A stretch of DNA of 64,000 nucleotides from Clostridia bacterium (lineage in GTDB: Bacteria > Bacillota > Clostridia > UMGS1883 > UMGS1540): positions 7,617 through 71,616 of the forward strand of contig JAZSIR010000001.1 of the NCBI GenBank assembly GCA_045533905.1, written 5' to 3'. A model generated the notes under the pieces. The model saw only the letters and a program-made list of their open reading frames with translations, did no database searches and had not been told where the DNA came from. Below are positions 1 through 27,614 of the stretch, one piece after another (position 1 is the first letter of the stretch; every line of letters begins with the position of its first letter). Both the position numbers and the translations under genes were made by a program.

Positions 1-2109
1 GGTGTTATGACAGCATCTATTCAGGCAGTTATGATGCCAAAGCTTGTTCCTGACGCAGAATATATGGAATTTAATTCGATATCAGATTTGATTGCAGCAC
101 TTAACAGTAACAAAATAGATGCTTTTGGCTGCGATGAATCCTTATATACATCAATGCTTTGGGAAGGTCAGGCAGTTGACCGCATTGATGAGCCTATTGA
201 TAAAAGTAATTATGGACTTATATTCCAAAAGGGCAAAAAACTTGAGCTTCAGAACGAGGTTAATGAGTTTATTGCCACGATAAGTGCAGACGGAACGCTT
301 AAAGCGTTGGAAGAAAAATGGTTTGGTGCGAAAGAACCGACAGAGTTTGCATCATATGAAAACTTAAATGGAACAAAGGGCACAATTACAGTTGCCACCA
401 ATTCTGCTTCCATGCCGTTTGTATATCGCAAAAATAATAAATTTGTCGGCTTTGATATTGAATTTATTACCGCCTTTGCCAAAGAATACGGCTATAATAT
501 TAAGTTTGAAGATACAGAATTTGCAGCTATTCTCAGCGGTGTTGGGTCAGGAAGATATGACCTTGGTATATCGGGCATTACCATAACCGATGAAAGAAAA
601 GAAAGTATGGACTTTTCTGATGTTTACCACGTAGAAGATCTTGCTGTAATTATAAGAAGAGAAGCAGGTGCAGATGAACTTTCGCAGTTTAACAGCGCAA
701 CACTCGGTGTTGTTACAGGCTCACTATACGGTGGATATTCTAAAGAGCAGTTCCCGGGCGCAAGCATCAAAGAGTTTAACAACTTCTCTGATGTTCTTGT
801 TGCCTTAAAGCAAGGCAAAGTTGACGGGATTATGCTTGATAAACCAAACTTTAACTCCGTTGCACGAACAGACAAGAGCCTTAAATGTATCATAGTTCCC
901 GCATATTCTGTGGAAATCGGTTTCGGATTCCAGAAAAATGACGGTGGCGATGCACTTCAGGCACAGATGAACGAGTTTTTGGCAAAGCTTGATAGCGATG
1001 GTACAACAGAGAAGCTCATAGATAAATGGTATGGCGAAACAGAGCCGGAAGAGACTATTGCATTAGAAGAACTTAAGGCAAACGAAAAGACACTTAATGT
1101 ATCTATCGACACAACAAGAAAGCCTTTTGTATATATGTATAAAGGAAAACCTGTGGGATTTGAAATTGAAGTCCTTTATATGTTCTGTAAGGAATATGGC
1201 TACAATGTAAATATCTCGGATGTTTCCTTTGCATCAGGACTTGCAGGCTTGGCAAGTGAAAAATATGACCTTGTTTGTGGCGGACTTTATATGACGCCTG
1301 AAAGAAAAGAAAGTGTAAACTTCTCCAATCCTTATATGAACGCAGAAGTTGTTATGGCAAAATGCGAAAGGTCAGGATTTGATAACTTTATGTTATCCAT
1401 TAAGGAGAGCTTTGAAAAAACCTTTGTAAGAGAGCAAAGATGGAAGCTGATTGTAGAGGGTATTTGCACCACAATGATTATAAGCTTGTTCTCCGCTTTG
1501 GGCGGAACACTACTTGGCTTTGCGCTTTATATGGCGGCACGCAGCAAGAAGAAGTGGCTCTCTAAACTTGCTAAAGGAATAGCAAAAGTGTATTCCACAA
1601 TTATTGCAGGCACACCTACGCTCGTTGTACTTATGCTTTTGTTCTATGTGGTATTCACTTCTCCCGATATGAGTGGAATTGTAGTTGCAATCGTCGGCTT
1701 TATACTGACCTTCGGCTCATTTGTTTACGATAATCTTGCATTAACCGTGTCAGGCGTTGACAACGGACAACTTGAAGCTGCATATGCTCTCGGCTATTCA
1801 AGAAACAGAACATTTTTCAGAATCATTCTGCCGCAGGCAATGAAGATGTTTGTGCCAAGTTATTCGGGCGAAATTGTAAACCTCATAAAAGCAACATCCG
1901 TTGTTGGTTATATAGCAGTAAACGACTTAACCAAAATGGGAGATATTATCAGAGGTAATACATACGAAGCTTTCTTCCCGCTTATTGCAGTTGCAGTAAT
2001 TTACTTTGCAATCACATGGGTTATAGCAGGACTTCTCGGAATTTTAAGAAAGAAAACCGAACCAAAAAGAAGAAAGAATAAAAACATATTAAAGGGGGTT
2101 GTAAGATGA
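1..2109 (+). CDS. Polar amino-acid ABC transporter with fused substrate-binding domains and permease (GlnP-like). The 5' end runs off the window.
   Basis: Frame 1 is open from nt 1, and the protein begins in the middle of a type-II binding domain (...EEKWFG). Next come one complete SBD (TITVATNSASMPFVY...DKWYG) and an N-lobe-only SBD of about 95 aa (LNVSIDTTRKPFVY...NPYM). The C-terminal part is a His/Glu/Gln/Arg-type permease with EAA loop EAAYALGYSRNRTFFRIILPQA. Confidence 0.8.
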   Translation, partial: GVMTASIQAVMMPKLVPDAEYMEFNSISDLIAALNSNKIDAFGCDESLYTSMLWEGQAVDRIDEPIDKSNYGLIFQKGKKLELQNEVNEFIATISADGTLKALEEKWFGAKEPTEFASYENLNGTKGTITVATNSASMPFVYRKNNKFVGFDIEFITAFAKEYGYNIKFEDTEFAAILSGVGSGRYDLGISGITITDERKESMDFSDVYHVEDLAVIIRREAGADELSQFNSATLGVVTGSLYGGYSKEQFPGASIKEFNNFSDVLVALKQGKVDGIMLDKPNFNSVARTDKSLKCIIVPAYSVEIGFGFQKNDGGDALQAQMNEFLAKLDSDGTTEKLIDKWYGETEPEETIALEELKANEKTLNVSIDTTRKPFVYMYKGKPVGFEIEVLYMFCKEYGYNVNISDVSFASGLAGLASEKYDLVCGGLYMTPERKESVNFSNPYMNAEVVMAKCERSGFDNFMLSIKESFEKTFVREQRWKLIVEGICTTMIISLFSALGGTLLGFALYMAARSKKKWLSKLAKGIAKVYSTIIAGTPTLVVLMLLFYVVFTSPDMSGIVVAIVGFILTFGSFVYDNLALTVSGVDNGQLEAAYALGYSRNRTFFRIILPQAMKMFVPSYSGEIVNLIKATSVVGYIAVNDLTKMGDIIRGNTYEAFFPLIAVAVIYFAITWVIAGLLGILRKKTEPKRRKNKNILKGVVR

Positions 2110-3197
2110 TTAAGATAAATCACTTAAAGAAAGAATATGCAAATGTTACTCCCTTAAAGGATGTAAATGTTCATATTCATAAGGGCGATGTCATTTCTAT
2201 TATTGGTCCTTCAGGCACCGGTAAATCAACCCTTATCAGATGTATCAATATGCTTGAAACTCCCACTTCCGGCGATATTTTCGTTAACGGTGAACGAATT
2301 ACCGACAAAAAATGTAACATAAACAAAATCCGTCAGAAGATGGGTATGGTGTTCCAATCCTTCAATTTGTTTAACCACATGAACATTATTGAAAACATTA
2401 TGGCAGCACCTATGGACTTACTTAAAAAATCAAAGCAGGATGCTTATGACGACGGTATGGAGCTTCTTCGCACAGTTGGTCTTGCAGATAAAGCCTTTAA
2501 CTATCCCGATGAGCTTTCAGGCGGTCAGAAACAGCGTGTTGCCATAGCAAGAGCACTCGCAATGGAACCCGAAATAATACTCCTTGATGAGCCGACATCG
2601 GCGCTCGATCCCACAATGGTCGGTGAAGTTCAGGCGGTAATTAAAGACCTTGCAAAAAAAGGCTTAACTTTAATGATAGTAACTCACGAAATGCGATTTG
2701 CAAGAGAAATTGCAAACAGAGTTTTCTATATGGATGAAGGCGGTGTTTATGAAGACGGAACACCTGAAGAAATCTTCGATAATCCAAAGCGAGAAAAGAC
2801 AATCAGATTTATTAAGCACCTTAAAGTATTTGAAAATCTTATCACCTCAAAGGATTTCGACTTTATAGGCTTTAATACATCTTTAGAAGAATTCGGCAGA
2901 CGAAATCAGGTTCCGCAGGAAACCATTTACCGCGCACAGTCGGTATTTGAAGAACTTGTTGTGCAATGTCTTCTTCCAAAGCTTGAGGAAGAGTTTACTC
3001 TAAGTATTGCCTTTGAATATTCTCAAGATGAAGAAACACTTTCGATGATTATGAAATATGACGGAGAACATTTCGATGTACGAAATACACCTAATGTTAT
3101 TTCGTTTGCTATTGCTGAAAATGCATCAGAAAGCATTGATTATACTGAGTGTAACGACGGTAATTTTACAAACCTCGTGACGGTGAAAATCAAATAA
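2106..3197 (+). CDS. Amino-acid ABC transporter ATP-binding protein (GlnQ-like) with an extra C-terminal domain of about 120 aa
   Basis: Walker A GPSGTGKST, signature LSGGQKQRVAIARAL, Walker B ILLDEPTSALD, H-loop VTHEM. ATGA overlap with the upstream permease. Residues about 241-363 lie beyond a normal NBD. Confidence 0.9.
   Translation: MIKINHLKKEYANVTPLKDVNVHIHKGDVISIIGPSGTGKSTLIRCINMLETPTSGDIFVNGERITDKKCNINKIRQKMGMVFQSFNLFNHMNIIENIMAAPMDLLKKSKQDAYDDGMELLRTVGLADKAFNYPDELSGGQKQRVAIARALAMEPEIILLDEPTSALDPTMVGEVQAVIKDLAKKGLTLMIVTHEMRFAREIANRVFYMDEGGVYEDGTPEEIFDNPKREKTIRFIKHLKVFENLITSKDFDFIGFNTSLEEFGRRNQVPQETIYRAQSVFEELVVQCLLPKLEEEFTLSIAFEYSQDEETLSMIMKYDGEHFDVRNTPNVISFAIAENASESIDYTECNDGNFTNLVTVKIK
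2826..3194 (+). other. RsbW/SpoIIAB-like (GHKL-fold) pseudo-kinase module fused to ABC ATPase 1
   Basis: Hand alignment to the stand-alone kinase at 13992-14402: QSVFEELVVQC vs IDIAIDELFGNI. FTLSIAFEYSQDEETLSMIMKYDGEHFDV vs ATVRVEVTEDPLAVVITFIDNGVPYDP. IDYTECNDGNFTNLVTVKIK vs IAYEYKDGHNILKIKK. It lacks the N-box Asn and the GGLG box. Confidence 0.5.
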
Positions 3198-3209
3198 CGA
3201 GGTGATAAA

Positions 3210-3563
3210 TTGGAACAGTATAATTTTTCAAACAGCAATATTGACCTTGCCTGTGAGGATGTTGGCGTTTTTCTGACATCGGTCGGAGTGGAAAAACGCG
3301 AAGTTTTGCGAAACAAACTCACCCTTGAGGAAATACTCCTTGAATACCAAGCAAAGTTTGGTGAAGAAGCGAACTTTAAGGTAAGATGCGTAAACCGCTT
3401 TATGACCATCAAGGTTGAGTTAATTGTTTCGGGACGGGTTTACAATCCGCTTGAAAAGAACGAGGAAGAAAACATCATACATGGAATTTTGGCAGGTATC
3501 GGTCTTGCCCCCTCATACGGATACAGAAACGGAAAGAATTATATCATTTTCACTCCCAAGAAA
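3210..3563 (+). other. RsbW-like pseudo-kinase module at the N-terminus of symporter 1
   Basis: NIDLACEDVGVFLTSV / KLTLEEILLEY / FKVRCVNRFMTIKVELIVSGRVYNPLEK / YGYRNGKNYIIF are collinear with NIETVTDFVNEQLEAF / IDIAIDELFGNI / ATVRVEVTEDPLAVVITFIDNGVPYDPLAK / YEYKDGHNILKI of the kinase at 13992-14402. Confidence 0.5.
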
Positions 3564-4781
3564 AAACCGTTGTCAAGCACGGTTAAAATGGGTGTGGCGA
3601 TTGGACTTTCGCTCATTTGCGGTTTTTTCCTTAATCTTCTGCCCGATTCAGTTAGAGCAGGTGCAAGCAAATATGTACTTTCGCCTGTGACCGATGCGTT
3701 TATGGGATTGATTTCGGCTGTATCGATTCCGCTGATTTTCTTGTCTGTCCTTGGTAGCATCTGCTCTATGGGCAACATGGAAACTCTCGGCAAAATTGGA
3801 AAAAAGACCATTAAAACTATTCTCCTGTATTTGACGGCGTTCAGTATACTTATGACAGCACTTGGAAGCTTGTTCTTTCACGTACAGTGGGGTGGCGGAG
3901 GAGCATCAGGTTTCTCACAGGTTTTCGATTTGATTTATAACATCATTCCATCGAATATGTTTGAACCTTTTATAACGGGAAATACTCTGCAGCTTATCTT
4001 CATTTCCATTATAGTTGGACTTGCAATGCTTGTCCTTTCGACAAGAGTGAACGGTGTTTTCAAACTTGTCGAACAGTTGGGCGCGATTGTGCAAACAATT
4101 ATGTCAGGACTTTCATCTATGCTGCCGATTTTGATTTTTGTACTCTTTACGGGAATGATATCCGGCGGAGAGTTCGGAACTCTGCTTGATTCTTGGAAGA
4201 TTATTGCAGTTTTCCTGTTGCTCGTTATGGTTTACTATGCAACAACTGTTTTGTACATTGCATTTAATAAAAAAATTTCGCCGGCTTTGCTATTAAAAAA
4301 GACATGGAAGACGCTTATTATTGCTCTTACAACTGCATCTTCTGCTGCGGCATTCCAAAAAAATATTCGCGATTCAAACAAAAAGTTTGGTATTGACAAA
4401 CGTCTCGCGGAATTTGGGGCATCCTTGGGACAAGTGTTGTTCAGCCCTGCTGATGTTGCTATTCTCATTGCAATGGAGGTTGGGTTTGCGGAAATGTATG
4501 GCATTGCGATCACTCCGCAGTTTTTAATCATTGCGTTGATCACGAACCTACTTTTGTCATTTTCCATTCCTCCCGTACCCGGAGGCTCTGTGATGGGATA
4601 CACTATTGCATTCACACAGCTTGGTATTCCTTTGGAGGTTATGGGTGTTGTTCTTGCCTTGGATGCGATCATTGATTTTCCGGCAACAGCGTGCAACATT
4701 TCGGGATGGCAGCTTACAATGATTGAGGTTGCTGACTCGCTCGATATGCTCGATAAAGAAACACTTTGCAAAAAGAGATGA
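3210..4781 (+). CDS. Dicarboxylate/amino-acid:cation symporter (DAACS/SDF family), paralog 1, with an extra N-terminal soluble domain
   Basis: TTG start 6 nt after GAGGTG. Multiple hydrophobic segments. SDF-type motifs TTASSAAAF, PPVPGGSVMGYT, DAIIDFPATACNISG. The first ~118 aa are non-membrane. Confidence 0.85.
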   Translation: MEQYNFSNSNIDLACEDVGVFLTSVGVEKREVLRNKLTLEEILLEYQAKFGEEANFKVRCVNRFMTIKVELIVSGRVYNPLEKNEEENIIHGILAGIGLAPSYGYRNGKNYIIFTPKKKPLSSTVKMGVAIGLSLICGFFLNLLPDSVRAGASKYVLSPVTDAFMGLISAVSIPLIFLSVLGSICSMGNMETLGKIGKKTIKTILLYLTAFSILMTALGSLFFHVQWGGGGASGFSQVFDLIYNIIPSNMFEPFITGNTLQLIFISIIVGLAMLVLSTRVNGVFKLVEQLGAIVQTIMSGLSSMLPILIFVLFTGMISGGEFGTLLDSWKIIAVFLLLVMVYYATTVLYIAFNKKISPALLLKKTWKTLIIALTTASSAAAFQKNIRDSNKKFGIDKRLAEFGASLGQVLFSPADVAILIAMEVGFAEMYGIAITPQFLIIALITNLLLSFSIPPVPGGSVMGYTIAFTQLGIPLEVMGVVLALDAIIDFPATACNISGWQLTMIEVADSLDMLDKETLCKKR

Positions 4782-4790
4782 GGTGGTTAA

Positions 4791-5144
4791 TTGGAACAGT
4801 ATAATTTTTCAAACAGCAATATTGACCTTGCCTGTGAAGAAGTCGGTGAGTTTCTTTCCAAAGTCGGTGTAGAACGACGCGAGGCTCTCCGAACAAAGCT
4901 CACATTTGAGGAAGTATTGCTTGAATACCAATCCAAGTTCGGAGAGGAAGCCACCTTCAAGGTGAGACTTCTGAAACGCTTGTCCTCTATAAAGGTCGAG
5001 ATCATCGTAGAAGGAGAATCCTACAACGCTCTTGTCAAAAACAGCGACGAGGGTGACGTGATACAAGGTCTGCTTGCAGGTATCGGTCTTGCTCCTACTT
5101 GGAATTACAAGAACGGTAAAAATTACATCGTATTTATACCAAAG
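4791..5144 (+). other. RsbW-like pseudo-kinase module at the N-terminus of symporter 2
   Basis: Same block structure as 3210-3563: NIDLACEEVGEFLSKV, KLTFEEVLLEY, FKVRLLKRLSSIKVEIIVEGESYNALVK, WNYKNGKNYIVF. Confidence 0.5.
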
Positions 5145-6365
5145 AAAAAACCGCTGTCCGGCACGGCCAAAATGGTCGGTGCAATCGGACTTGCGGTGAT
5201 TTGCGGAATTATCTTAAATCTCTTGCCAGACGGAATCAGAGCAGGCGCAAACGATTATGTGCTAACACCCGTAACGAATGCGTTTGTGGGACTTATCTCA
5301 GCAGTATCAGGGCCGCTGATCTTCCTATCGGTTCTCGGCAGTATCTGCTCCATGGGCAATATGGAAACCCTCGGCAAGATCGGAAGTAAGACGATTAAGG
5401 TTATCCTTCTTTATATGACGGTAATCGCAGTATTGATGACCGCATTCGGCTGCCTGTTTTATCACATTGAAATGGGTGGCGGAGGGACATCGAGCTTCTC
5501 GCAGATTCTCGATTTGATCTATGACATCATTCCGTCAAATCTGTTTGAACCCTTTGTAACCGGAAATGCTTTGCAGCTGATCTTCATTTCCATCATGGTC
5601 GGACTTGCAATGCTTGTCCTATCGTCGAGAGTCAGTGGCGTGTTCAAGCTCGTGGAACAGCTCAGCTCCATCGTGCAAACGATTATGTCGGGGCTGTCCT
5701 CAATGCTTCCGATTCTGATATTTGTTCTCTTTACGGGAATGATTTCAAGCGGTAACCTTGGTGCAATTCTCGATTCTTGGAAGATGATATTAGTCATCGT
5801 GCTAATGATTGTAGTTTACTACGTACTGAATCTTCTGCGAATCTCCCTTATGAAAAAGATACCGCCGGCTTTGCTGATGAAGAAAGCGTGGCAGACACTT
5901 CTCATTGCACTTACCACCGCATCCTCGGCTGCCGCGTTCGGTACGAACACCCGTGATGCAAACAAAAAGCTTGGTATTGACAAAAAGCTTGTTGAGTTCG
6001 CAACTCCCATCGGTCAGGTATTGTTTATGCCCGGATATGTCGCCATGCTTTTTTGTATGGAAATGGGCTTTGCGGAATCCTACGGTCTTCCGATTACTCT
6101 ACCGTGGATATTTATCGCTCTTATCACAAATCTTTTGTTATCATTTGCAGTCCCGCCCGTGCCCGGTGGTGCAATGATGGGATTTACGATTGCTTTTACA
6201 CAACTCGGCATTCCTATGGAGGTTATGGGTATTGCGTTGGCGGTGAACGCTATCATTGATTTCCCCTGTACAGCCTGCAATGTTTCAGGATGGCAGCTTA
6301 CTCTTATTGATGTTGCTGACTCACTTAATATGTTGGATAAAGAATCATTACATAAAAATAATTAA
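4791..6365 (+). CDS. DAACS/SDF-family symporter, paralog 2 (tandem duplicate of 3210-4781), with the same N-terminal extra domain
   Basis: Collinear with paralog 1 over its full length. Same TTG start context. Motifs TTASSAAAF, PPVPGGAMMGFT, NAIIDFPCTACNVSG. Confidence 0.85.
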   Translation: MEQYNFSNSNIDLACEEVGEFLSKVGVERREALRTKLTFEEVLLEYQSKFGEEATFKVRLLKRLSSIKVEIIVEGESYNALVKNSDEGDVIQGLLAGIGLAPTWNYKNGKNYIVFIPKKKPLSGTAKMVGAIGLAVICGIILNLLPDGIRAGANDYVLTPVTNAFVGLISAVSGPLIFLSVLGSICSMGNMETLGKIGSKTIKVILLYMTVIAVLMTAFGCLFYHIEMGGGGTSSFSQILDLIYDIIPSNLFEPFVTGNALQLIFISIMVGLAMLVLSSRVSGVFKLVEQLSSIVQTIMSGLSSMLPILIFVLFTGMISSGNLGAILDSWKMILVIVLMIVVYYVLNLLRISLMKKIPPALLMKKAWQTLLIALTTASSAAAFGTNTRDANKKLGIDKKLVEFATPIGQVLFMPGYVAMLFCMEMGFAESYGLPITLPWIFIALITNLLLSFAVPPVPGGAMMGFTIAFTQLGIPMEVMGIALAVNAIIDFPCTACNVSGWQLTLIDVADSLNMLDKESLHKNN

Positions 6366-6384
6366 AAGAAAGAGGTAGATTACT

Positions 6385-6681
6385 ATGACTATCGAAAAAA
6401 ACTTAAACGGAACCGAACTGACAGTTGCCATTGTTGGCAGACTTGACACAACAACCGCACCTGAACTTGAAGCATCTTTAAAAGAAAGCTTTACTGGTGT
6501 AGAAAAACTTGTGCTTGATTTTGCTTCACTTGAGTATCTTTCTTCTGCAGGACTTCGTGTTCTTCTGGCGGCTCAGAAGGCAATGAACAAGCAGGGCGAA
6601 ATGATTATTAAGAATGTAAACGAAACCATCAATGAAATCTTTGAAGTAACGGGATTTATTGATATTTTGACAATCGAATAA
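6385..6681 (+). CDS. STAS-domain anti-sigma-factor antagonist (SpoIIAA/RsbV-like), copy 1
   Basis: 98 aa of typical STAS length. Phospho-serine loop LEYLSSAGLRVLL. RBS AGAGG 9 nt upstream. Confidence 0.85.
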   Translation: MTIEKNLNGTELTVAIVGRLDTTTAPELEASLKESFTGVEKLVLDFASLEYLSSAGLRVLLAAQKAMNKQGEMIIKNVNETINEIFEVTGFIDILTIE

Positions 6682-6701
6682 TTGCTTAGGGAGGGCTTTG
6701 T

Positions 6702-7595
6702 ATGCCGAATTACGATTTTTTGCTTGAGCATAAGCTGAAGGAACTGAATAGTGAGTTTGCATATCGGCATACCTGCTGTATGTCACTTTTTGAGCAAATG
6801 CTGAAAAGGTTTCTCGCCGTATTCCCAACATTTACCGATCATACACTCCTACATACTTTGAGTGTGACAAACATATCAAACCAACTGCTTCGTGAAAATG
6901 TTATGAAATTAAATGCAAGCGAGATATACATATATCTTATGGCGTGTGCTTTGCATGATATTGGAATGGGTGTTTCGGACAAGGACATTGGCTCATTTAT
7001 TGATGCATCCGGTCTCAGAGGATATGTAAACGAACATCCTGAAATATCTAAGCCTAATTTGATACGCAAATTTCACAACGATTTTTCAGCACAGTTTGTA
7101 AAAAAGTATTGGGAGATACTTGAGATACCAAATAAGCGGTATGCTGATGCGATTGCTGAGGTCGGACGAGGGCACAGAAAGACGGATTTGATGGATGAAG
7201 CACTTTATCCTACAGATTACGAACTTGGTGACGGAAGCAAAGCGAATCTTGCCTTGCTTGCGGCACTTATACGACTTTGCGATGAGCTTGATATAGCATC
7301 GGACAGAAACCCTGATTTGCTGTATGATACCGAAACTATGGAGGGTATGAGCGAGAAGGATGTATTTGAGTTTTCCAAGCACGAGGCTATCCATACGCTA
7401 AAGTTTAGTGAGGATAATATTGTGGTTATTGCTGACACAGATAAACCGGATATTGCCGATGGAGTTATAGAGGCGATCCGTACTGTTAAAGAAACTCTTG
7501 AATATTGTCTTTCTGTAATCAGCAAACGTAGTGATTTTCAAATTGATTGCGAAACAATAAAACTGATATTAAATGATAAAGAAGTAGAGGTGTAA
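6702..7595 (+). CDS. HD-domain metal-dependent phosphohydrolase
   Basis: H...HD...D ligand pattern (DHTLLHTL, CALHDIGM, RLCDELD). No further family assignment is possible by eye. Confidence 0.65.
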   Translation: MPNYDFLLEHKLKELNSEFAYRHTCCMSLFEQMLKRFLAVFPTFTDHTLLHTLSVTNISNQLLRENVMKLNASEIYIYLMACALHDIGMGVSDKDIGSFIDASGLRGYVNEHPEISKPNLIRKFHNDFSAQFVKKYWEILEIPNKRYADAIAEVGRGHRKTDLMDEALYPTDYELGDGSKANLALLAALIRLCDELDIASDRNPDLLYDTETMEGMSEKDVFEFSKHEAIHTLKFSEDNIVVIADTDKPDIADGVIEAIRTVKETLEYCLSVISKRSDFQIDCETIKLILNDKEVEV

Positions 7596-7599
7596 AAAT

Positions 7600-8313
7600 A
7601 TGGCAACTGCACATATAAATGCAAAACCGGAGGATTTCGCAAAAACGGTGCTTATGCCCGGCGATCCTCTCCGCGCAAAGCTGATCGCGGAAAAATATCT
7701 TGAAAACGCTGTACTTGTAAATAATGTCAGAGGCGTTCAGGGCTATACGGGTACATATAAGGGCAAACGAGTGTCCGTTATGGCGAGTGGTATGGGAATG
7801 CCGTCAATGGGTATTTATTCTTATGAGCTTTACAAGTTTTTCGGAGTAGAAAACATTATTCGTATTGGTTCAGCAGGTGCTCTTAATACCGATATTTATG
7901 TTCGTGATGTTGTAATCGGTATGGGTTGTTCTACTGATTCCAATTTTGCGGCAAATTACAAGCTTCCCGGAACTTTTGCTCCACTTTGCAGCTACAAACT
8001 GATGGACGCTTGTGTTGAAAGTGCAAAAGAAATGGGTGTAACATATCACGTGGGCAACCTTCTTTCGTCAGATATTTTCTATGGTGATGACGAAACGGCA
8101 AACGACGCCTGGGCAAAGATGGGTGTTATGGCAATAGAGATGGAGGGTGCGGCACTTTATATGAATGCTGCGCGTCTTGGCAAAAACGCCCTTGTTATTT
8201 GTACCGTATCCAATCACATAATCACGGGCGAGGAAACTACTGCTGAGGAAAGACAGAATTCCTTTGGTGAAATGATTACATTGGCACTTGAAACCGCCTT
8301 GAAGTTAGACTGA
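7600..8313 (+). CDS. deoD: Purine nucleoside phosphorylase, DeoD type
   Basis: 237 aa. N-terminus HINAKPEDFAKTVLMPGDPLRAK, plus RIGSAGAL and AIEMEGAALY, all characteristic of hexameric PNP. Confidence 0.9.
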   Translation: MATAHINAKPEDFAKTVLMPGDPLRAKLIAEKYLENAVLVNNVRGVQGYTGTYKGKRVSVMASGMGMPSMGIYSYELYKFFGVENIIRIGSAGALNTDIYVRDVVIGMGCSTDSNFAANYKLPGTFAPLCSYKLMDACVESAKEMGVTYHVGNLLSSDIFYGDDETANDAWAKMGVMAIEMEGAALYMNAARLGKNALVICTVSNHIITGEETTAEERQNSFGEMITLALETALKLD

Positions 8314-8327
8314 CGGAGGGGGTACTG

Positions 8328-8966: not shown

Positions 8967-8967
8967 G

Positions 8968-10059: not shown

Positions 10060-10082
10060 AATTTTCGGCAAGTGAGGTTTTT

Positions 10083-18578: not shown

Positions 18579-18794
18579 AGCCACACAACAAATTATACAC
18601 GATACAAATAAAAATGTCAATCGTGGAAATTGAACCTTGAAAACTTAATAGCCGAACCGCAAGGGATACATTCTCGGGGAAGTGTCGCCACGATATGAGC
18701 GCACCAAGAGATGAAAATACGATGTCGGTGTCAAACAAGGCAGGAGGTCAGGAACTGTAGCGGAAGTCGGTGCTAAAATAATTATATGAAGGGA

Positions 18795-18959: not shown

Positions 18960-19051
18960 TCTTTTAGTTTTTGTTTAATATTTGTCTGGATATATTAAGT
19001 TATTTGTGGTATTGTTGTCTTGAAAAAAATATGGAAAGGAGTGTGAGGCTG

Positions 19052-20593: not shown

Positions 20594-21457
20594 ATGGCAA
20601 ACCGTTACCTTGCATTCGGCTACAAAATAGCTGACGGCAAACTTTGTGTTGAAGAAACTGAGGCAGAACTTGTAAAGGCGACCTTTACACTGTATGCGGC
20701 AGGAAAATCCTACAGCCAAATTGCTGAAAGATTTACCTTAAGCGGAATCAGATACAACATTGATTTTGACAAATGGAATAAAAATATGGTAAAGCGGATA
20801 ATTGAAAACGATAAATATATCGGCAGGAACGGTTATCCGCAAATCATAGAAGAAAAGCTCTATAACAAGGCGAACAAGACAAGAATTTCAAAAGTCATAA
20901 ATAAACCGCCTGAAAAAGCAGAGCTTGACAACTTCCTTCGGTCTCATTCGGAATGCCCGGTTTGCAGCTCCCCGATAAAAAGGCAGAATCAATGCTACGG
21001 CGAGAATAGGTCTGTGGCATATAAATGTACCAATTCTGTATGCCCGGCGAAATCTGTTAAAGAGAATCGACTTGTAAATCTCATAACGGAATTGCTTAAC
21101 GAAATTGCAAATGATTTAAGTCTTGCAGATGAACCTGTTATAACCGCAATTCCCGATGATGAACTGACAGACGATATGGCAAACGATATCTACATAAAAA
21201 TGCTGACGGAATACGATAAGGATGAAGTGCTTGCAGACATATATGAGCTTGCAAAATTCAAATTCCGAAACAGTATCAAAACAGATATGAGTGCAGTTAC
21301 AGAAAGAATAAAAAAAGAGCTTTGCAAGTATGGGATACTTACAGAGCCTCATCTTCCGCTTATGCAGAAAATTATATCAAAATTCTATGTAGGCGGTCAG
21401 GAAGAGCTTTCTATACTGCTTACCAATGGAAAATTAATAACAAGGAGTGTGAATTAA
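20594..21457 (+). CDS. Serine-recombinase-family protein lacking the catalytic resolvase domain (recombinase domain plus zinc ribbon only)
   Basis: Starts one nt after the stop of recombinase 1. Begins at the recombinase-domain block LAFGYKIADGKLCVEETEAELVKATFTLYAAGKSYSQIAERF. Zinc ribbon CPVCSS...YKCTNSVCPAK. No YxRVS nucleophile motif. Confidence 0.75.
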   Translation: MANRYLAFGYKIADGKLCVEETEAELVKATFTLYAAGKSYSQIAERFTLSGIRYNIDFDKWNKNMVKRIIENDKYIGRNGYPQIIEEKLYNKANKTRISKVINKPPEKAELDNFLRSHSECPVCSSPIKRQNQCYGENRSVAYKCTNSVCPAKSVKENRLVNLITELLNEIANDLSLADEPVITAIPDDELTDDMANDIYIKMLTEYDKDEVLADIYELAKFKFRNSIKTDMSAVTERIKKELCKYGILTEPHLPLMQKIISKFYVGGQEELSILLTNGKLITRSVN

Positions 21458-21459
21458 AG

Positions 21460-23064
21460 ATGGCAAATGTAATCGAAATACCTGCAACAAAATCATATTT
21501 CGGGCATAGTGCAAAGCGAGTCCTGAATGTGGGTGCTTATGCGAGAGTCAGCACCGAGGCGGAGCAACAAGCAAAAAGCTTTGAAACTCAGGTTGAACAC
21601 TATACCAAACTGATCAAAGAAACTACCGGTTGGAAATTTGTAGATGTATATGGCGATGAAGGTATCAGCGGAACCTCTATATACAACCGACCAGAGTTTC
21701 AGAGAATGATGAATGATTGCAGAAAAGGCAGGCTGGACTTAATAATAATTAAATCAGTATCAAGATTCGGCAGAAATTCCGCCGAGAGCTTACAATGTAT
21801 CAGAGAACTTAAGGATTTAGGTGTCGGAGTAATATTTGAAAAGGAAGGTATCAATACCCTCAACTATACGACCGAGATGTTCATTGCACTGCATACCATA
21901 TTCGCTCAATCCGAAAGTGAGTCGATGAGTGAAAATATAAAAATGGGCAGAAGTTACAGATACCGTGAGGGTAAGTGCTGCTATAACTTTAACGGAGTAT
22001 ACGGCTTCAGTCAGGACGATGAAAAAAACATATCAGTGGAAATCGGCAAAGCAATCAATGTCAGGTTCATCTTCGACTGCTTCATAAAAGGTATGAGCAT
22101 AGAACAAATTGTCAATGCACTTGCCGAAAGAGAAATCCCCTCTCCGAGAGGTAAAGAAAGATGGTCGCCCGGCTCAGTGGAAAGAATACTTAAGAATGAA
22201 AAATATGCAGGTGATGTTCTGACCTCAAAGACATTAACTCTTGATCCAATCTCAAAGAAAAAGGTAAAGAACACAGGTCAGGCTCCGCAGTATTATATCA
22301 GAGACCATCATCCGCCAATCGTAGAACGAGAACTGTTCGACAGTGTACAAGAGGAAATTAGCCGACGTGGATGTATCAAAAAGTTTGATAAAAAACAAAG
22401 CTATGGAAAATACAGCGGGAAATTTCCTTACAATGACTTAATATTCTGTGGTGAGTGCGGTGCCAAATACAGACGAACAGAATGGAAAACCCGTAGCGGT
22501 GATAAGAAATATGTGTGGCGATGCCTGAACAGAATTCAGAACGGACAAGATTGCTGTAAGAATTCTCCTTCCATCAACAATAACTTTATGAATGAGGTTA
22601 CGCTCGAAGCTATCAATGCGATATACACAAGTAGAAAAAGAGTAAAGGACATATTAAAAAGCTCAATCGCCTCTCTACTCGGGGATACCGAACAGCCAAA
22701 GATAAGTGCAAATATGGAAAAGCTTAATCTAATGAGCGACAGAATGCGTGAGGCTATATACCAAAATGCTAACGGTGAAATATCAACGGACGAGCTTGAC
22801 AGAATATGTCTGGAAGTAAAGATGGAATCGCAAAGACTGCGTCAAGAGAATAAGGAATATGAGATGGAGAGAAAGATGAAATCAACCGAGTCATCTAAGC
22901 TGAAGCTTATCTTCAAAGCCATTGATGGTATGGAAGATAAGGTGAGCGAGATTGATACACCTCTCATTCGAAGCATCATCGAAAGATACGAGGTTGTGTC
23001 AAAGAAAAAGATGATCATATGGTTCATCGGCGACATACCTTATGAGGTTGACCTACCGAAATAA
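21460..23064 (+). CDS. Large serine recombinase 2 (third gene of the trio)
   Basis: Start MANVIEIP follows AGGAG. Catalytic AYARVSTEAEQQ, SVSRFGRN, zinc ribbon CGECGAKY...WRCLNRIQNGQDCC, coiled-coil tail. Confidence 0.9.
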   Translation: MANVIEIPATKSYFGHSAKRVLNVGAYARVSTEAEQQAKSFETQVEHYTKLIKETTGWKFVDVYGDEGISGTSIYNRPEFQRMMNDCRKGRLDLIIIKSVSRFGRNSAESLQCIRELKDLGVGVIFEKEGINTLNYTTEMFIALHTIFAQSESESMSENIKMGRSYRYREGKCCYNFNGVYGFSQDDEKNISVEIGKAINVRFIFDCFIKGMSIEQIVNALAEREIPSPRGKERWSPGSVERILKNEKYAGDVLTSKTLTLDPISKKKVKNTGQAPQYYIRDHHPPIVERELFDSVQEEISRRGCIKKFDKKQSYGKYSGKFPYNDLIFCGECGAKYRRTEWKTRSGDKKYVWRCLNRIQNGQDCCKNSPSINNNFMNEVTLEAINAIYTSRKRVKDILKSSIASLLGDTEQPKISANMEKLNLMSDRMREAIYQNANGEISTDELDRICLEVKMESQRLRQENKEYEMERKMKSTESSKLKLIFKAIDGMEDKVSEIDTPLIRSIIERYEVVSKKKMIIWFIGDIPYEVDLPK

Positions 23065-23101
23065 CGGCAGGTCCTTTTTACAAGAAATTTTCAAAAAGGC
23101 C

Positions 23102-23130
23102 TTGTAAAAAATATAGTTTTATGGTAGAAT
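23102..23130 (+). promoter_or_regulatory. Outward-facing promoter-like element downstream of the recombinases
   Basis: TTGTAA, 17 nt, TAGAAT, with TGn (tggTAGAAT). It overlaps an inverted repeat, so it may instead be part of a terminator or att structure. Confidence 0.3.
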
Positions 23131-23246
23131 AAATCTTGTAAAAGAGATTTATTCTGCCTTTGGAATTGATAAGGGTAAAACCTTGAAACCCGCTTGAAAT
23201 CAAGCAAAAATTAATGTGGCAGTAAAATCATATCGTTCTTACACGT

Positions 23247-23275
23247 CGGAGCAAAGTACGCTTTGCTCCGTTTTT
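23247..23275 (+). terminator. Rho-independent terminator
   Basis: CGGAGCAAAG-tacg-CTTTGCTCCG followed by TTTTT. Confidence 0.65.
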
Positions 23276-23437
23276 CTTTTATAAGAAAAACATTCGCCTA
23301 CTTCCTCTCCCCTCCTTTTCGCAAAAGGTCACGTTCAAGTCGGCTATTCGCTTGTAAACGCGCTCATAACGCCTTTTTTCACTACCAACCTTTTGCGAGT
23401 GTGCCTTCGGCACGATCTGTATTGTTATGTATAAAAA

Positions 23438-23467
23438 GGGCAGATTTTATAGAAATCTGCCCTTTTT
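23438..23467 (-). terminator. Bidirectional hairpin terminator directly after the stop at 23469
   Basis: AAAAA-GGGCAGATTT-tatag-AAATCTGCCC-TTTTT. Confidence 0.65.
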
Positions 23468-23507
23468 CTTATTTTTCTATTTGCTTTTTCACAAGGCTTT
23501 CGTCCCA
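23461..23507. repeat. Direct repeat copy A: imperfect duplicate of the acyl-CoA synthetase 3' end (candidate att/integration-site sequence)
   Basis: On the minus strand, GAAAGCCTTGTGAAAAAGCAAATAGAAAAATAAgaaaaagg compares with copy B GAAAGCCTCGTAAAAAAGCAAATCGAGAAATAAgaaaagg. There are 4 substitutions, all synonymous, and 1 indel. Confidence 0.8.
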
Positions 23508-26500
23508 TCCATATTCTTTAATATATGTATCTGCCTCTTTTAGGGCCTTTTTGTCTGTGTAGGCATCATACGAGAAGATACCGTCCTCGACCATTTTCTC
23601 AATCGTCGGTAGCGCTTCGTCAGGGGTTGCCTTGGCTTCAAGGATTGTGCGAACGGTCTGCGATACTTTCTTGTTTTTTCCTGTTTTCTGAGGCACTTGT
23701 ATGTCTCTGTGCGGTTTTTCTCCGCTTGGGATTGCGCCGTACCTTTCTATAAGCTCGTTGTAAAGTTCAGTACTTACGTGCCCTTTCTCTACATACTTTG
23801 CCAACTTGCGTTTGGCGGCCTCGTCCCCTTTTTGCAAGCCTTGAATGGTGGCAACATATTCCCTCTCCGAGAGCATGCCTTTGAGAGAAAAATCACTCTT
23901 GACTTTTTGTTCGGGATGTGCTACACTCTTGTTAAGGTCAGCACTTGTGTGCCCTGCCTCAGCATCTGTATTGATGCTTGCAGGGAAAGTGTTGGCCGTT
24001 TCTTTTTCCCAAACCCTGTGCACCCAGAATTTGTTTTTCTGCGGTGATTTTTTAATATCTAGGCGGATGGTAACGTCTTTTCCGTCGACCTCCAGCGTAT
24101 GCTCGATGTACGCAAATTTTTTATTATCGCTGTTTCCGTATTGGTTTTGAACATTATCAGCAACAAGACGTCCTTTCTCGATGATTTCTGGTAATCTCCT
24201 TATCGTAGCAAGCTTTGTAATTTTCTTATTCTTACCGAGACGTGCATAATTTTTCAAATTAAATGTCTCGTCGATTCCGCTTTTATTTGTTTCAATAATC
24301 ATACCGGAATCTTCGTTGACGTCTACTCTTTTTCGCTTCTCGGTATCTGTAAAAAAGTTTTCCCCGAGAAGAGTTTTTAGCACTTGTCTTTGCACGTGAA
24401 TGTAATCCCCAGGCGCGTCAATCCCAAAACTTTCAAAGGTGCTTTTAACAAACTCGTCCGAATAGTTGCTCTCACGCCTCGCGGGGACGCTTTCAACCGC
24501 TTTTATATAGTCGGAGTCTTTGAGAGAAAAATCACTCTTGACAATTTTTTGGGGGTGTGATATATTATCCCTAGAGTAGTTCTCTTTAACGTCTTGGACG
24601 TACGCCTTGCGGATTTCATGCAAATCAGCGAGATATTGAGAACTACTCTGTTTTTTATGTATAGCATCAATCAAGCCATACAGGTTTGGAATACTATCTA
24701 TCCCCGTTTTTACCATTTGCTTGTTAATAAGAAGTTTTTCTCTGTTATATTCCGTTGTTATTGCTTCGACATAATAAATCACATCACCCGGCATTACTTT
24801 TACATAAATCAAACCCGGATCACCATTTGCGTTTGTTTTGTAAAATACTTTATCGTAATTTTCAACAATATACGGAATTAGCTCAACATCTGCTTCGGTA
24901 ACAGGGTATTTTTCATTTGTTTTTTTGCCGTGGGAGTTCTTGATATGCCGAATATCATTATCGCGCAACGCATGAGAATAACCCGATATATCCACATCAG
25001 AAGATACTTCATTTATCAAATCCCTTCCAACCTTTAGGAATTTAATGTAAGATTTTTCATTATCGTTTAGATAGGCTTTTTCTATGTACCGGTTGATGTC
25101 AGATTGCGTAACCTCAAAATCAAACACTTTATCCGCATATCCTAATGTCTTCAAGGAAAAGTCCACACCGCCCTCTGGAGCGGTGTTCTTTTGTCCGTCT
25201 ATTCTCTTGAGTGAATAGCTCTTTTCTTCCGATTCTCTGAAGAGATTTTCGAGGACATTTCTAAAAGCTCGGCTTCCGTTGCGTTGGGATTGTCTCGGCA
25301 AAACTCCAACATTTTGATTGTGTCTTCCGCCTCCCAGGTTTCGAAGATTATTTTGACTACTGTTGACATTTTGCAACCAACTTCCTTGAGATACCCTTTG
25401 AGCAAAACTTGGTTTTCCGTTAATACCCTTGCCATCTTCTTCGTCCTCCAATAAATCAATTAAAATATCTAATTCAAAGCTTCCGTCATCGCCTTTTCTT
25501 TCGTAGAGGATTGTAGGATGTTCTGGGGTTTCCGTGCTGTATATGGCAAACAAAGCTTCTCCGTCAATTCTGCCTTTATACCAACATCCAACCGTATCTG
25601 CGATTCTTTTAGGTTCGTGATTCTCAACCTGCCGAATCCAGTCTTCCAGCATTTTGAACTGCGTTGCGTTCAAATCTGTGCGCCATTTTAACGAATAGCT
25701 TGTATTTCCATTATACTCCGCTCCCATGTTTTTTTCAAGAGTATCGGAGGAATTCTCTTTTTTGAGAGAAATTTCATTCTTGACAGAATTTGAATTTTGT
25801 GGTATATTGTCATTAGAAACACTATCCCGTGTAGCCTGTCTTTCGGCAGGCAATCTGGTCATTCTTTCGAGAAGACCAATCTCGGCGGTAGTGTTTTCTT
25901 CAATCCCAACAATATCGTATAGGTATTTGTTGCCATCAGAAGCATTCCTAATCAACAGCTCGACATCAAAAGCTCGTACCTTTGTTATCTTTCCTCGATT
26001 ATCTTTTATCGGGAAAGCAAAGGAATTAGCATAACGATACATACCATACTTCGCATCCTTATTATGTGTGTGCTGCGTCTTTTCCCACCTGCGATTCGTA
26101 GCTGTTTCTATCAATTCTCCAAAGCCGTCAACAGCTTTATTTTTACCTCTTGCGGCGGTGCGATTAACCCTACGGAGAAAAGTGGTGTACTTCGAATGCG
26201 TGTACTCTTGCGGCAAATCCTCGCCAATGTAGACCTTCTGCCCACTTTCTATAATCGTATAAACTTCGCCTATATGTTGTGCAATGTAGCCTGCAACAGC
26301 TTGATGGCTGTTTAATTGCTTGTTGGTCAGTCCACTTTCTTCAATCCATACAAAGCTCTTGCCATCAACATTTTTCAAGCTAAAGTCTACGCCGTCCTCT
26401 GTGTCGGTGTTTTTTTGTGCCTCTGCGGTCTGTTTAGTATGAGCCTTTGCTTCCACCGCCTTTTTGTTTTCCACAGCCTTTGCGACAGCAGTCTCAAACA

Positions 26501-27566
26501 TATCGCGAAGACTTGTGATTTCGTCAAGCTTTGGCTGAATCTTTGCTTTTTCTTTGGCGCTCTTGCCTGCAAGAAAATCACGAATTTTCCTAATCATCTC
26601 GGCAAGATACTCAATGTACTTCCGCAAGCCTTGCTTTGCCTTTTCGTCCGTGCCGTTGATGATGCTGTCAATAGCCTTATGGAATCGCGCCTCATCGTTG
26701 CCGTAAAGGTAGAGAATGTTGTTTGCAGAAACTTCTTCCATTGCCTTTGCAAGAGATATTTCCTCGCCCTGTGCGGCGTATGCACTTCGTTTTTGGTCTG
26801 CAACGGTAAATATAGACGGCTCATTGCCGGCAATGTGATTATACATCGCATACACAAACGCGCTGCCTTCTTCAGGGGCAAGGTCGACAACTCTATGCAG
26901 CGCTATTTCGTGCGCCGCATGGAAGACAATAGATACCTTCTGCCCGCCCACTTCTCTTTCAAAATCGAAGTCAATAGGCACTTCCCCCGTTTGCCTGTTG
27001 TACTCGGCGTTGCCTTTTAGGCCCTTTGCCATATACGCCTTTACGCCAAGTCCTTCTGCTAAAAGATTGAGCGTTGCAACCTCGCTTTGTTTAACATCGC
27101 TCGGCAGGTTTTCCGCAAGAACGCCGCTTTCCATATTTACAACTGCATTTCTAAACCTTTCTTTGGCGGCGAGGTCTTCCATTTTTCTGTCCATCTGCCC
27201 TGCCGTGAACGCATCTTCTTGTGCTTTGGATATAAATACGTCCTTGCCTTTTTTAACATTCAAGTCCGGTTGCTTAAAGCCTGTCATGTACGATGCCTTG
27301 ACCTCTTCCAGCACTTTGTTAAAGGTTGCCCCGTCTGCATTCGAATAATTGGCCACAAGTTTCGCCCCTTCCTCGCCAAACCCCGTGACCTTTCTTACCT
27401 CGTCGGCGGTTATCTCCACGCCGTTCTCGGTGAGGACATCTAGTGTTTCGCTGCTTACGATTCCTCTTCTGCGGTTTTCAAGAAGGGTGTAACCGTCTAC
27501 TCGATTTTTTCTACCGCGCCCATTGCCTTCCTTATACGCAAAAAGGCTGTGAAACCTAGGTTTCAC
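23469..27566 (-). CDS. Polyvalent protein of conjugative-element or phage type, apparently 5'-truncated. Its last 10 codons are supplied by repeat copy A.
   Basis: 1365-aa ORF made of modules separated by recurring (D)FSLK linkers, six in total. Nuclease-like motif SHALRDNDIRHIKNSHG. No credible RBS or ATG at the 5' end: a GTG inside a palindrome, 9 nt after the upstream stop. Confidence 0.6.
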   Translation of the reverse strand: MKPRFHSLFAYKEGNGRGRKNRVDGYTLLENRRRGIVSSETLDVLTENGVEITADEVRKVTGFGEEGAKLVANYSNADGATFNKVLEEVKASYMTGFKQPDLNVKKGKDVFISKAQEDAFTAGQMDRKMEDLAAKERFRNAVVNMESGVLAENLPSDVKQSEVATLNLLAEGLGVKAYMAKGLKGNAEYNRQTGEVPIDFDFEREVGGQKVSIVFHAAHEIALHRVVDLAPEEGSAFVYAMYNHIAGNEPSIFTVADQKRSAYAAQGEEISLAKAMEEVSANNILYLYGNDEARFHKAIDSIINGTDEKAKQGLRKYIEYLAEMIRKIRDFLAGKSAKEKAKIQPKLDEITSLRDMFETAVAKAVENKKAVEAKAHTKQTAEAQKNTDTEDGVDFSLKNVDGKSFVWIEESGLTNKQLNSHQAVAGYIAQHIGEVYTIIESGQKVYIGEDLPQEYTHSKYTTFLRRVNRTAARGKNKAVDGFGELIETATNRRWEKTQHTHNKDAKYGMYRYANSFAFPIKDNRGKITKVRAFDVELLIRNASDGNKYLYDIVGIEENTTAEIGLLERMTRLPAERQATRDSVSNDNIPQNSNSVKNEISLKKENSSDTLEKNMGAEYNGNTSYSLKWRTDLNATQFKMLEDWIRQVENHEPKRIADTVGCWYKGRIDGEALFAIYSTETPEHPTILYERKGDDGSFELDILIDLLEDEEDGKGINGKPSFAQRVSQGSWLQNVNSSQNNLRNLGGGRHNQNVGVLPRQSQRNGSRAFRNVLENLFRESEEKSYSLKRIDGQKNTAPEGGVDFSLKTLGYADKVFDFEVTQSDINRYIEKAYLNDNEKSYIKFLKVGRDLINEVSSDVDISGYSHALRDNDIRHIKNSHGKKTNEKYPVTEADVELIPYIVENYDKVFYKTNANGDPGLIYVKVMPGDVIYYVEAITTEYNREKLLINKQMVKTGIDSIPNLYGLIDAIHKKQSSSQYLADLHEIRKAYVQDVKENYSRDNISHPQKIVKSDFSLKDSDYIKAVESVPARRESNYSDEFVKSTFESFGIDAPGDYIHVQRQVLKTLLGENFFTDTEKRKRVDVNEDSGMIIETNKSGIDETFNLKNYARLGKNKKITKLATIRRLPEIIEKGRLVADNVQNQYGNSDNKKFAYIEHTLEVDGKDVTIRLDIKKSPQKNKFWVHRVWEKETANTFPASINTDAEAGHTSADLNKSVAHPEQKVKSDFSLKGMLSEREYVATIQGLQKGDEAAKRKLAKYVEKGHVSTELYNELIERYGAIPSGEKPHRDIQVPQKTGKNKKVSQTVRTILEAKATPDEALPTIEKMVEDGIFSYDAYTDKKALKEADTYIKEYGWDESLVKKQIEK
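27549..27566. repeat. Perfect 18-bp palindrome at the island/chromosome junction (terminator stem or recombination core)
   Basis: GTGAAACCTAGGTTTCAC lies 9 nt downstream of the synthetase stop. On the minus strand it is followed by AGCCTTTTT. Confidence 0.8.
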
Positions 27567-27568
27567 AT

Positions 27569-27614
27569 CCTTTTCTTATTTCTCGATTTGCTTTTTTACG
27601 AGGCTTTCGCCGCA
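27569..27614. repeat. Direct repeat copy B (native 3' end of the acyl-CoA synthetase gene)
   Basis: See copy A. Copy B uses the GC-richer synonymous codons (CTC, GTA, ATC, GAG). Confidence 0.8.

Follow-up and report, generated by a model that had tools for sequence, protein, structure and literature searches.

Background

Integrative and conjugative elements (ICEs), as well as defective ICEs, can carry triplets of serine-integrase genes at one of their extremities, and the repeats that go with them are only 2-8 bp long (PMC4701971). In Faecalibacterium, tandems of elements, recombinase-only elements and remnants are frequent, and within this bacterial order tandems of remnants and of elements with only a recombinase occur commonly (PMC12084326). 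The anatomy of the locus described here matches these surveys of triplets, tandems and remnants. It lies in a stretch of 64,000 nt from Clostridia bacterium (GenBank assembly GCA_045533905.1, contig JAZSIR010000001.1, positions 7,617 to 71,616 of the forward strand), hereafter the window, in which a transporter and partner-switching cluster of low G+C content on the left is separated from a G+C-richer block beginning with an acyl-CoA ligase gene on the right. According to the original prediction for this stretch, the left cluster might be cargo of a large island whose edge coincides with the change in composition. We found instead that this break is the border between the DNA of two lineages, bridged by about 11 kb of decayed mobile-element DNA, and not the edge of one large cargo island.

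Composition and ancestry of the two sides

The compositional break is real. A single change-point model gave 40.9% G+C on the left and 49.4% on the right (log-likelihood gain 227), and the same step was visible in a 1-kb profile of the window. The mean G+C content at third codon positions (GC3) was 0.40 for 12 genes between nt 1 and 16.6 kb, 0.38 for the mobile-element genes and 0.535 for 24 genes on the right, where single genes ranged from 0.49 to 0.60; the difference across the break was significant (Mann-Whitney p = 1e-5) and the contrast of 0.40 with 0.535 held over 16.6 kb and 36 kb. Tetranucleotide distances were 0.30-0.39 between left and right chunks compared with 0.14-0.25 inside either side. 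By all three measures (G+C, GC3 and tetranucleotides) the two sides of the window differ, so that the left block, as is usual for an island, is unlike the adjoining host DNA. The step is nevertheless weaker than had been claimed: the original prediction counted 26-27 G+C per 60-nt line on the left and 38-39 on the right, which is too high, since the measured means are 24.7 and 29.7 and a count of 38 is reached in only 4% of the right lines.

The break had been placed at the stop codon of a "synthetase" gene, the acyl-CoA ligase gene described below. A structural border does lie there, but the statistical optimum falls at 26.39-26.62 kb, within a 1,365-aa open reading frame (ORF) and about 1 kb left of the ligase stop, and a break at 27,575 is 11 log-likelihood units worse. 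The N-terminal module of this ORF is G+C-richer in the homologues of L001 and L100 too (L numbers denote the loci compared with the window); this explains the offset from 27.57 kb, so the structural border at the ligase stop (27,576-27,578) stands. A GC3 step inside the same ORF, at ~26.1-26.4 kb, was also considered as a chimeric or recombination breakpoint and was ruled out on the same ground, the module being equally G+C-richer in those two homologues.

The nearest relatives of the two sides differ as well, being close on the left and distant on the right. Nine of ten left proteins belong to 90%-identity clusters of 42-1,051 members, with exact sequences on up to 68 contigs, whereas all six right housekeeping proteins are singletons in 90%-identity clustering, each found on this contig only. 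When the 5'-nucleotidase and the ligase are added, 9 of 11 left proteins are clustered against 0 of 7 on the right (Fisher p about 0.001). Matches reach 96-98% for left proteins, and no relative of the right-hand genome exceeds 86% amino-acid identity in the searched collections. The nearest relatives of the block are thus unlike those of the flanking genome, a second property shared with islands. From composition and nearest relatives together, the case that the left DNA is foreign to the right-hand genome is well supported, and the sequence indicates that the two sides are DNA of two different lineages of uncultured gut Clostridia, which differ by about 25% in DNA where they can be compared.

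The mobile region between the two blocks

The features between the last gene of the left block and the first gene of the right block are, from left to right:

16,619-16,646, forward strand: terminator-like hairpin that separates the 5'-nucleotidase gene from the cassette (-20 to -21 kcal/mol, z = -5)
16,650-17,341, forward strand: cassette with the gene (16,785-17,339) for a 184-aa secreted Listeria-Bacteroides-repeat protein (Pfam Flg_new, DUF6550)
17,401-18,507, reverse strand: gene for a DUF6076 protein (Pfam DUF6076), a regular neighbour of the cassette in mobile elements
18,786-18,959: 57-aa ORF just upstream of the recombinase triplet
18,971-23,064, forward strand: three large serine recombinase genes at 18,971-20,593, 20,594-21,457 and 21,460-23,064, the last given from its likely start (Pfam Resolvase, Recombinase, Zn_ribbon_recom; PHROG integrase)
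23,230-23,425, no strand assigned: about 190 nt of conserved non-coding sequence, with 70-78% identity to L001:11056-11224 and L107:1041-1219
23,433-23,467, reverse strand: terminator hairpin after the left copy of the ligase 3' end (-20.3 kcal/mol, z = -8)
23,464-23,507, reverse strand: left copy of a 44-nt direct repeat, fused to the end of the polyvalent ORF (sequence identity)
23,469-27,566, reverse strand: 1,365-aa ORF, apparent remnant of a mobile-element "polyvalent protein" gene (Pfam PBECR3 nuclease, LPD3)
27,540-27,575, reverse strand: hairpin with a 20-bp perfect palindrome, the ligase terminator (-17.8 kcal/mol, z = -5; A-run before, U-run after)
27,571-27,614, reverse strand: 44-nt repeat, right copy, corresponding to the genuine ligase 3' end (sequence identity)
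27,576-29,228, reverse strand: AMP-binding acyl-CoA ligase gene, first gene of the 49% G+C block (Pfam AMP-binding, AMP-binding_C)

The left border of the mobile region is set by the cassette, a unit of about 700 bp composed of a promoter region and the gene for the 184-aa secreted Flg_new/DUF6550-like protein, whose 90%-identity cluster has 855 members. A metagenome scan with this protein found the cassette in at least 25 metagenome loci at 77-97% identity, and the cassette loci considered here are L101-L129 and L002. Their DNA homology to the window is limited to about 16,620/16,650-17,341 and has a sharp border. On the left, the flanks are unrelated to one another (his operon, an RNase J/AI-2E/BrkB region, a GGDEF-EAL gene, SLH genes, SpoIIE-RsbW), with at least six unrelated left flanks among 11 aligned loci; these place the left end at about 16,597-16,655, and the hairpin at 16,619-16,646 is common to 7 of the 11. 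On the right, the flanks are mobile-element genes belonging to several kinds of element, namely DUF6076 (L101, L103 and L107), followed in L101 by AAA_25 and a relaxase, three recombinases (L103), a tyrosine integrase (L104 and L105) and an insertion sequence transposase (L114). The order in L103 (cassette, DUF6076, three recombinases) is that of the window, with recombinases 47-52% identical in amino acids; the cassette together with the window's particular DUF6076 gene and triplet was not present in any of about 12 sampled right flanks.

Since the cassette recurs with unrelated left flanks, nt 1-16,602 lie outside the recombinase element, which on this comparison is a unit of about 6.5 kb with its left border at ~16.65 kb. 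Its right end is bounded to 23,065-23,230, no comparable locus running past the third recombinase. This anatomy does not support the earlier proposal of an element of at least 23 kb that includes nt 1-16,602 and bears its recombinases at the right-hand end. The recombinase genes (18,971-23,064) are situated about 4.5 kb left of the break, not at it. The cassette also clearly behaves as a repeat that breaks assemblies, as 13 of 29 metagenome contigs stop no more than 400 nt away, including 8 that stop inside the cassette, and its copies in other samples are up to 97% identical over stretches of 100 nt. When identity was scanned along the cassette in search of a mosaic breakpoint, the pattern proved patchy, without a clear switch.

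Concerning the recombinases themselves, the first and third have Resolvase, Recombinase and Zn-ribbon domains. Because the middle one (20,594-21,457) combines a Recombinase domain with a zinc-finger match and has no catalytic resolvase domain, at most two of the three are predicted to be active. Pfam and PHROG scans of 16.6-27.6 kb detected no relaxase, coupling protein or VirB4. The 10-kb mobile region had no near match among plasmids and phages at the DNA level; a protein-mode search of the same collections returned only distant recombinases (~37%, the best plasmid-borne one being at 37%) and one DUF6076 match at 33.5%, and IMG/VR scans with the third recombinase and the DUF6076 protein gave relatives of at most 39% identity or none.

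The right border of the mobile region is the 3' end of the ligase gene. The 44-nt repeat comprises the last 11 codons of the ligase, its stop codon and 8 further nt (…ESLVKKQIEK*), and its two copies, at 23,464-23,507 and 27,571-27,614, are in direct orientation and identical at 38 of 44 nt (86%), where chance alone would give about 5e-8 such pairs. The terminal peptide motif is common to ligase orthologues (…ES[LIV]VKKQIEK), and each repeat copy is followed by its own strong terminator hairpin. The earlier statement that no left repeat copy was visible in the window is thereby corrected. The 18-bp palindrome reported at the break does exist beside the ligase stop, but it measures 20 bp (TGTGAAACCTAGGTTTCACA, 27,548-27,567, directly after the stop codon) and is the core of a terminator-like hairpin. 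No third copy of the ligase-end repeat occurs on either strand of the 64 kb, and in the fetched loci it was seen only at the 3' ends of ligase orthologues. The sole repeat of this kind thus brackets 4.1 kb and does not delimit the whole low-GC block, whose left end could lie outside the window. An attempt to assign the two copies to lineages by their base differences was abandoned, as only 5 positions were informative (4 against 1, not significant).

Between the two copies lies the 1,365-aa ORF. Polyvalent proteins are large and multi-domain, carry LPD and PBECR modules and occur in conjugative elements and phages; they were reportedly described by Iyer and colleagues in 2017. Homologues of the window ORF have 2,100-2,400 aa and it spans only their middle: in the alignment with one of 2,389 aa it covers residues ~680-1,548 and so lacks both ends. 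It has no methionine start, and its homology extends from about 27,512-27,515 to 23,505. The partial alignment, the lack of a start and the bounded homology mark the ORF as a probable internal fragment of a polyvalent gene, with a reading frame that ends in borrowed ligase codons. We read the 4.1 kb between the repeats as the likely remnant of an element once integrated at the ligase 3' end. Indeed, it resembles a cis-mobilisable element (CIME) in having attachment-site-like (att-like) repeats at the 3' end of a host gene and an interior with only the truncated polyvalent ORF, without integrase or transfer genes.

Lone polyvalent remnants similar to that of the window are present in unrelated chromosomal sites of L001 and L100, and no direct repeats were found around them. 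In L100 (8,745-9,073), the remnant P0003 is followed by an opposite-strand tRNA-like gene, as judged by eye; such a neighbour would fit the idea that these remnants mark old attachment sites. No tRNA gene that could serve as an attachment site is present in the window. Within the window ORF, a DNA motif is repeated at 23,880-23,936, 24,519-24,575 and 25,761-25,817 and encodes "…SDFSLK"-type linkers between polyvalent modules, similar "DFSLK" motifs being present at about aa 393 and 799; these linkers are likely module-shuffling sites.

The non-coding element of about 190 nt to the left of the remnant occurs in the intergenic regions of three unrelated loci (the window, L001:11,044-11,240 and, on the minus strand, L107:1,030-1,232) with a mean column identity of 80%, and its hairpin appears to keep its pairing despite sequence differences among the copies. 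Rfam gave no family at the gathering threshold and only chance-level matches in 23,050-23,480. The element could be a small RNA or a miniature repeat.

The left block

The left block is composed of the following genes:

1-3,197, forward strand: amino-acid ABC transporter, a solute-binding/permease fusion gene and an ATPase gene (2,106-3,197; Pfam SBP_bac_3 + BPD_transp_1, ABC_tran)
3,210-6,365, forward strand: two tandem sodium:dicarboxylate-family symporter paralogues (Pfam SDF, twice)
6,385-12,101, forward strand: two STAS antagonist genes (6,385-6,681 and 11,805-12,101) around a purine-salvage block (Pfam)
12,094-14,402, forward strand: partner-switching pair, a HAMP-SpoIIE (PP2C) phosphatase gene (12,094-13,995) and an RsbW-like kinase gene (13,992-14,402; Pfam SpoIIE, HAMP, HATPase_c_2)
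14,410-16,602, forward strand: gene for an SLH-anchored 5'-nucleotidase, last gene of the low-GC chromosomal block (Pfam Metallophos, 5_nucleotid_C, SLH)

The functions encoded here are accessory (transport, nucleoside scavenging, signalling). Comparison with other genomes suggests that nt 1-16,602 is an ordinary chromosomal segment of a common lineage of about 40% G+C. In a genome scan, the order ABC transporter-STAS-SpoIIE-RsbW, with the 5'-nucleotidase added in some species, was conserved in dozens of species representatives among uncultured Clostridia, Oscillospiraceae and Acutalibacteraceae with 38 to 51% G+C, and the SpoIIE-RsbW pair lay near ABC transporter and STAS genes in many of the loci found. 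The block is nearest to low-GC loci of 40-42% G+C (L004, 88.6% nucleotide identity; L005, 90%; L181, 93.6%) and only 72-77% identical to the versions of the cluster with 47-51% G+C; for the ABC transporter region, the nearest genome loci are 88-90% identical and also have 40-42% G+C. A Pfam scan of the ORFs detected no mobility gene in these 16.6 kb. The closest relative, L181, is 93.6% identical over 13,780-16,596, its homology ending at the stop codon of the 5'-nucleotidase gene (best matches of the protein, 96-94% in amino acids), and there the same SpoIIE, RsbW and 5'-nucleotidase genes precede a Fic gene instead of a mobile element. The cargo proposal conflicts with each of these observations: the element border lies at ~16.65 kb, the gene order is chromosomal in relatives and L181 carries the genes without a mobile element. 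On this evidence the transporter and partner-switching genes are probably not cargo of the recombinase element.

The junction between the left block and the cassette has counterparts elsewhere. The low-GC genome locus L002 and the metagenome contig L120 have the cassette after the end of an SLH gene homologous to that of the window (SLH end, hairpin, cassette); the junction is therefore already present in a low-GC genome. In the nearest genomes with long contigs (L002, L081 and L082), the 5'-nucleotidase gene is followed by a DUF3089 gene and then by the gene for an SLH protein of about 2,800 aa, after which the cassette comes in L002. Compared with these three, the window resembles a deletion between two SLH-coding 3' ends. 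In addition, 1.1 kb upstream of the 5'-nucleotidase neighbourhood, L081 carries a module with a tyrosine integrase and an excisionase.

At the left edge, the fusion ORF (window 1-2,109) is probably cut by the window start: in relatives the product of this first ORF is some 1,000 aa long and has additional solute-binding domains, and the ATG at nt 7 is not preceded by a stop codon. The two SDF symporter copies are 70-76% identical in DNA (repeat families D1 and D2). Those of the STAS gene (6,385-6,681 and 11,805-12,101) have stretches of 82-97% identity (repeat families D3, D10 and D19) and bracket 5.1 kb, which resembles an insertion with duplication of the STAS gene; the purine-salvage block between them encodes HD-CE, purine nucleoside phosphorylase, permease, ATPase and adenine deaminase, and L008 has most of this arrangement without the adenine deaminase. 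As in RsbU/V/W-type modules, a PP2C phosphatase, STAS antagonists and an anti-sigma kinase are encoded together, and a Pfam scan of the window ORFs revealed no sigma-factor domain. Identity of the SpoIIE phosphatase is only 47-49% to that of genomes whose RsbW is 86-90% identical, and 57-68% to the Acutalibacteraceae versions; the identity of L181 to the window DNA falls from 93.6% to 70% inside the SpoIIE gene. The sensor part of SpoIIE thus seems to have been swapped by recombination. GC3 values of 0.50-0.53, near those of the right-hand genes, occur in three genes of the left block, namely the second SDF symporter, SpoIIE and RsbW.

The right block

Beyond the ligase gene, the right side of the window forms a single unit:

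29,349-64,000, no strand assigned: core chromosomal block of about 49% G+C (Pfam)

By its gene content, this block is clearly core chromosome. It encodes MurA, VanZ, SLH proteins, Lgt, two M16 peptidases, CCA-adding enzyme, MGDG synthase, Ham1, MutL, MurC, a 2,226-aa SLH protein, LysR and MatE, among others. Apart from itself, the best match of the ligase is at 86% in amino acids and 77% in nucleotides, and its divergent pairing with murA is kept in L077-L080. A comparison with empty sites from this side was uninformative, the nearest relatives (86% amino-acid identity) having only the murA-ligase pair in common with the window. As originally stated, SLH-domain proteins are encoded in both halves of the window (Pfam). 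Three SLH domains stand at the N-terminus of the 2,226-aa ORF (51,263-57,943), which also has a Flg_new repeat and, weakly, a GA-like match; its product would be a giant cell-surface protein.

Origin of the junction

We consider that the window may be a chimeric metagenome contig, with a rough probability of 45%, and that this is slightly more likely than a true island; misassembly of this kind is what the original prediction itself named as refuting it. Briefly, the host chromosome of 49% G+C ends with the acyl-CoA ligase gene, whose 3' end was formerly an attachment site and has kept a 4.1-kb polyvalent-gene fragment between two imperfect 44-nt copies. Next to it, leftward, comes the compact element of about 6.5 kb with the cassette, the DUF6076 gene, the small ORF and the three serine recombinase genes, and, left of the ~16.65 kb border, an ordinary chromosomal segment from the common lineage of about 40% G+C. 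The assembler would have joined two co-resident genomes through this mobile-element DNA, the cassette of about 700 bp being the best candidate for the shared repeat. We infer such an artefactual join from the borders and the discordant ancestries observed above: ancestry switches within 17.3-27.6 kb, at the left edge of which lies a cassette known from at least six contexts. The ingredients of a chimera also exist separately, as low-GC genomes with the SLH-gene-to-cassette junction and as elements beginning with the cassette. An exact 41-mer across the 27.57 kb junction had no match in the metagenome collection.

Several points weigh against a chimeric contig. The contig is unbroken over 146 kb (145,981 bp), and as assemblers usually break at shared repeats, this is some evidence that the linkage is true. 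The switch of ancestry is bounded no more closely than to 17.3-27.6 kb. Finally, the 5'-nucleotidase is a singleton in the clustering despite relatives at 96%, so that singleton status is imperfect evidence.

The best-surviving alternative, which we hold to be quite possible although with distinctly less than even confidence, is that the linkage is genuine and that the 49% G+C organism received at least 23-27 kb as one block from a low-GC relative, the left end of this block lying beyond the window. This is the idea of the original prediction in a defensible form, with the triplet near the right edge of the block, beside the attachment site in the ligase gene, and the cluster having come as flanking donor chromosome through aberrant excision, cis-mobilisation or accretion of elements side by side. 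The block is indeed foreign in composition and ancestry, its genes are accessory in function and the contig runs unbroken through the region; moreover, an att-like duplication marks the ligase 3' end as an attachment site that has been used, the triplet lies within about 400 nt of the left repeat copy and points towards it, as fits triplets at an element extremity (PMC4701971), and tandems, remnants and cis-mobilisable elements are frequent in Faecalibacterium (PMC12084326). However, the usual left border of the element falls between the recombinases and the supposed cargo, and the 16.6 kb in question are free of mobility genes, with genes ordered as in a chromosomal locus that many species possess. 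Neither a left boundary nor a third repeat copy is present in the window, the cassette with this DUF6076 gene and triplet is absent from the roughly 12 sampled right flanks, and a site-specific serine recombinase would have had to perform a rare aberrant excision. The specific event, in which a triplet element devoid of transfer genes carried at least 16.6 kb of low-GC donor chromosome into a distant 49% G+C relative that is otherwise unsampled and settled beside an older remnant at the ligase 3' end, seems to us unlikely; if true, it would be a natural cis-mobilisation of ordinary chromosomal genes between genera of gut Clostridia.

Far less credible is homologous recombination inside a cell between two related genomes that shared a mobile element at this locus, with one crossover in the element and another further left, giving a hybrid chromosome. 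Site-specific elements can occupy the same locus in different species, and L002 and L120 do have the left junction of the window with its cassette, but at a DNA divergence of about 25% a second homologous crossover is improbable without a further shared element on the left, and nothing within the window bears on this. Least probable of all, and already disfavoured, is the view that only 16.65-27.57 kb is foreign, as two small elements with well-defined borders inserted in one genome with regional G+C variation: the three left genes with nearly right-hand GC3 would suit it, but the GC3 contrast is sustained along both flanks, the left cluster is closer to genomes of 39-42% G+C than to its 47-51% versions, and close relatives exist for 9 of 10 left proteins and for none of 6 on the right.

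If the contig is chimeric, as we tentatively prefer, the deposited genome bin mixes DNA of two organisms, and a cassette of about 700 bp at the ends of mobile elements is a hazard for the assembly and binning of ruminant-gut Clostridia. A real linkage would mean that a cluster of chromosomal genes for metabolism and signalling has moved between distant gut Clostridia on a minimal recombinase element, a useful but unsurprising result given the abundance of composite integrated elements in these genomes. In both cases, present evidence does not justify annotating the transporter and partner-switching cluster as island cargo.

Comparison with known systems

Every part of the locus is of a known kind: a triplet module, a recombinase-only element, a remnant flanked by att-like repeats, a polyvalent relic and an RsbU/V/W-type module. 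None of them appears close to a described element, the best plasmid-borne recombinase being 37% identical.

Like the composite elements of Faecalibacterium (PMC12084326) and those of the Streptococcus surveys of ICEs and integrative mobilisable elements, the window has a remnant flanked by att-like repeats at the 3' end of a host gene, beside a recombinase-only element, and its host belongs to the same broad group of gut Clostridia as Faecalibacterium. Unlike in these composites, the two parts do not demonstrably share one att site, and the second element, known only from its sequence, relies on serine recombinases, for which repeats of only 2-8 bp are expected. The three adjacent and co-oriented large serine recombinase genes at 18,971-23,064, near an extremity and one or two genes from the flank, recall the ICEs with serine-integrase triplets (PMC4701971); in contrast to these, the window element has no relaxase, coupling protein or VirB4, its middle gene is devoid of the catalytic resolvase domain and its nearest plasmid-borne recombinases are about 37% identical.

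The 1,365-aa ORF shares with polyvalent proteins the LPD3 and PBECR3 domains, a modular build and repeated "…DFSLK" linkers, but it would be a relic without a proper start, its last 11 codons coming from the ligase, and not a working early-entry protein. Finally, compared with the inter-genome chimeras known from short-read assemblies, the contig of the window reads through the shared repeat instead of breaking at it, but, as in those chimeras, its ancestry and G+C content switch abruptly in mobile DNA beside a cassette at which contigs end.

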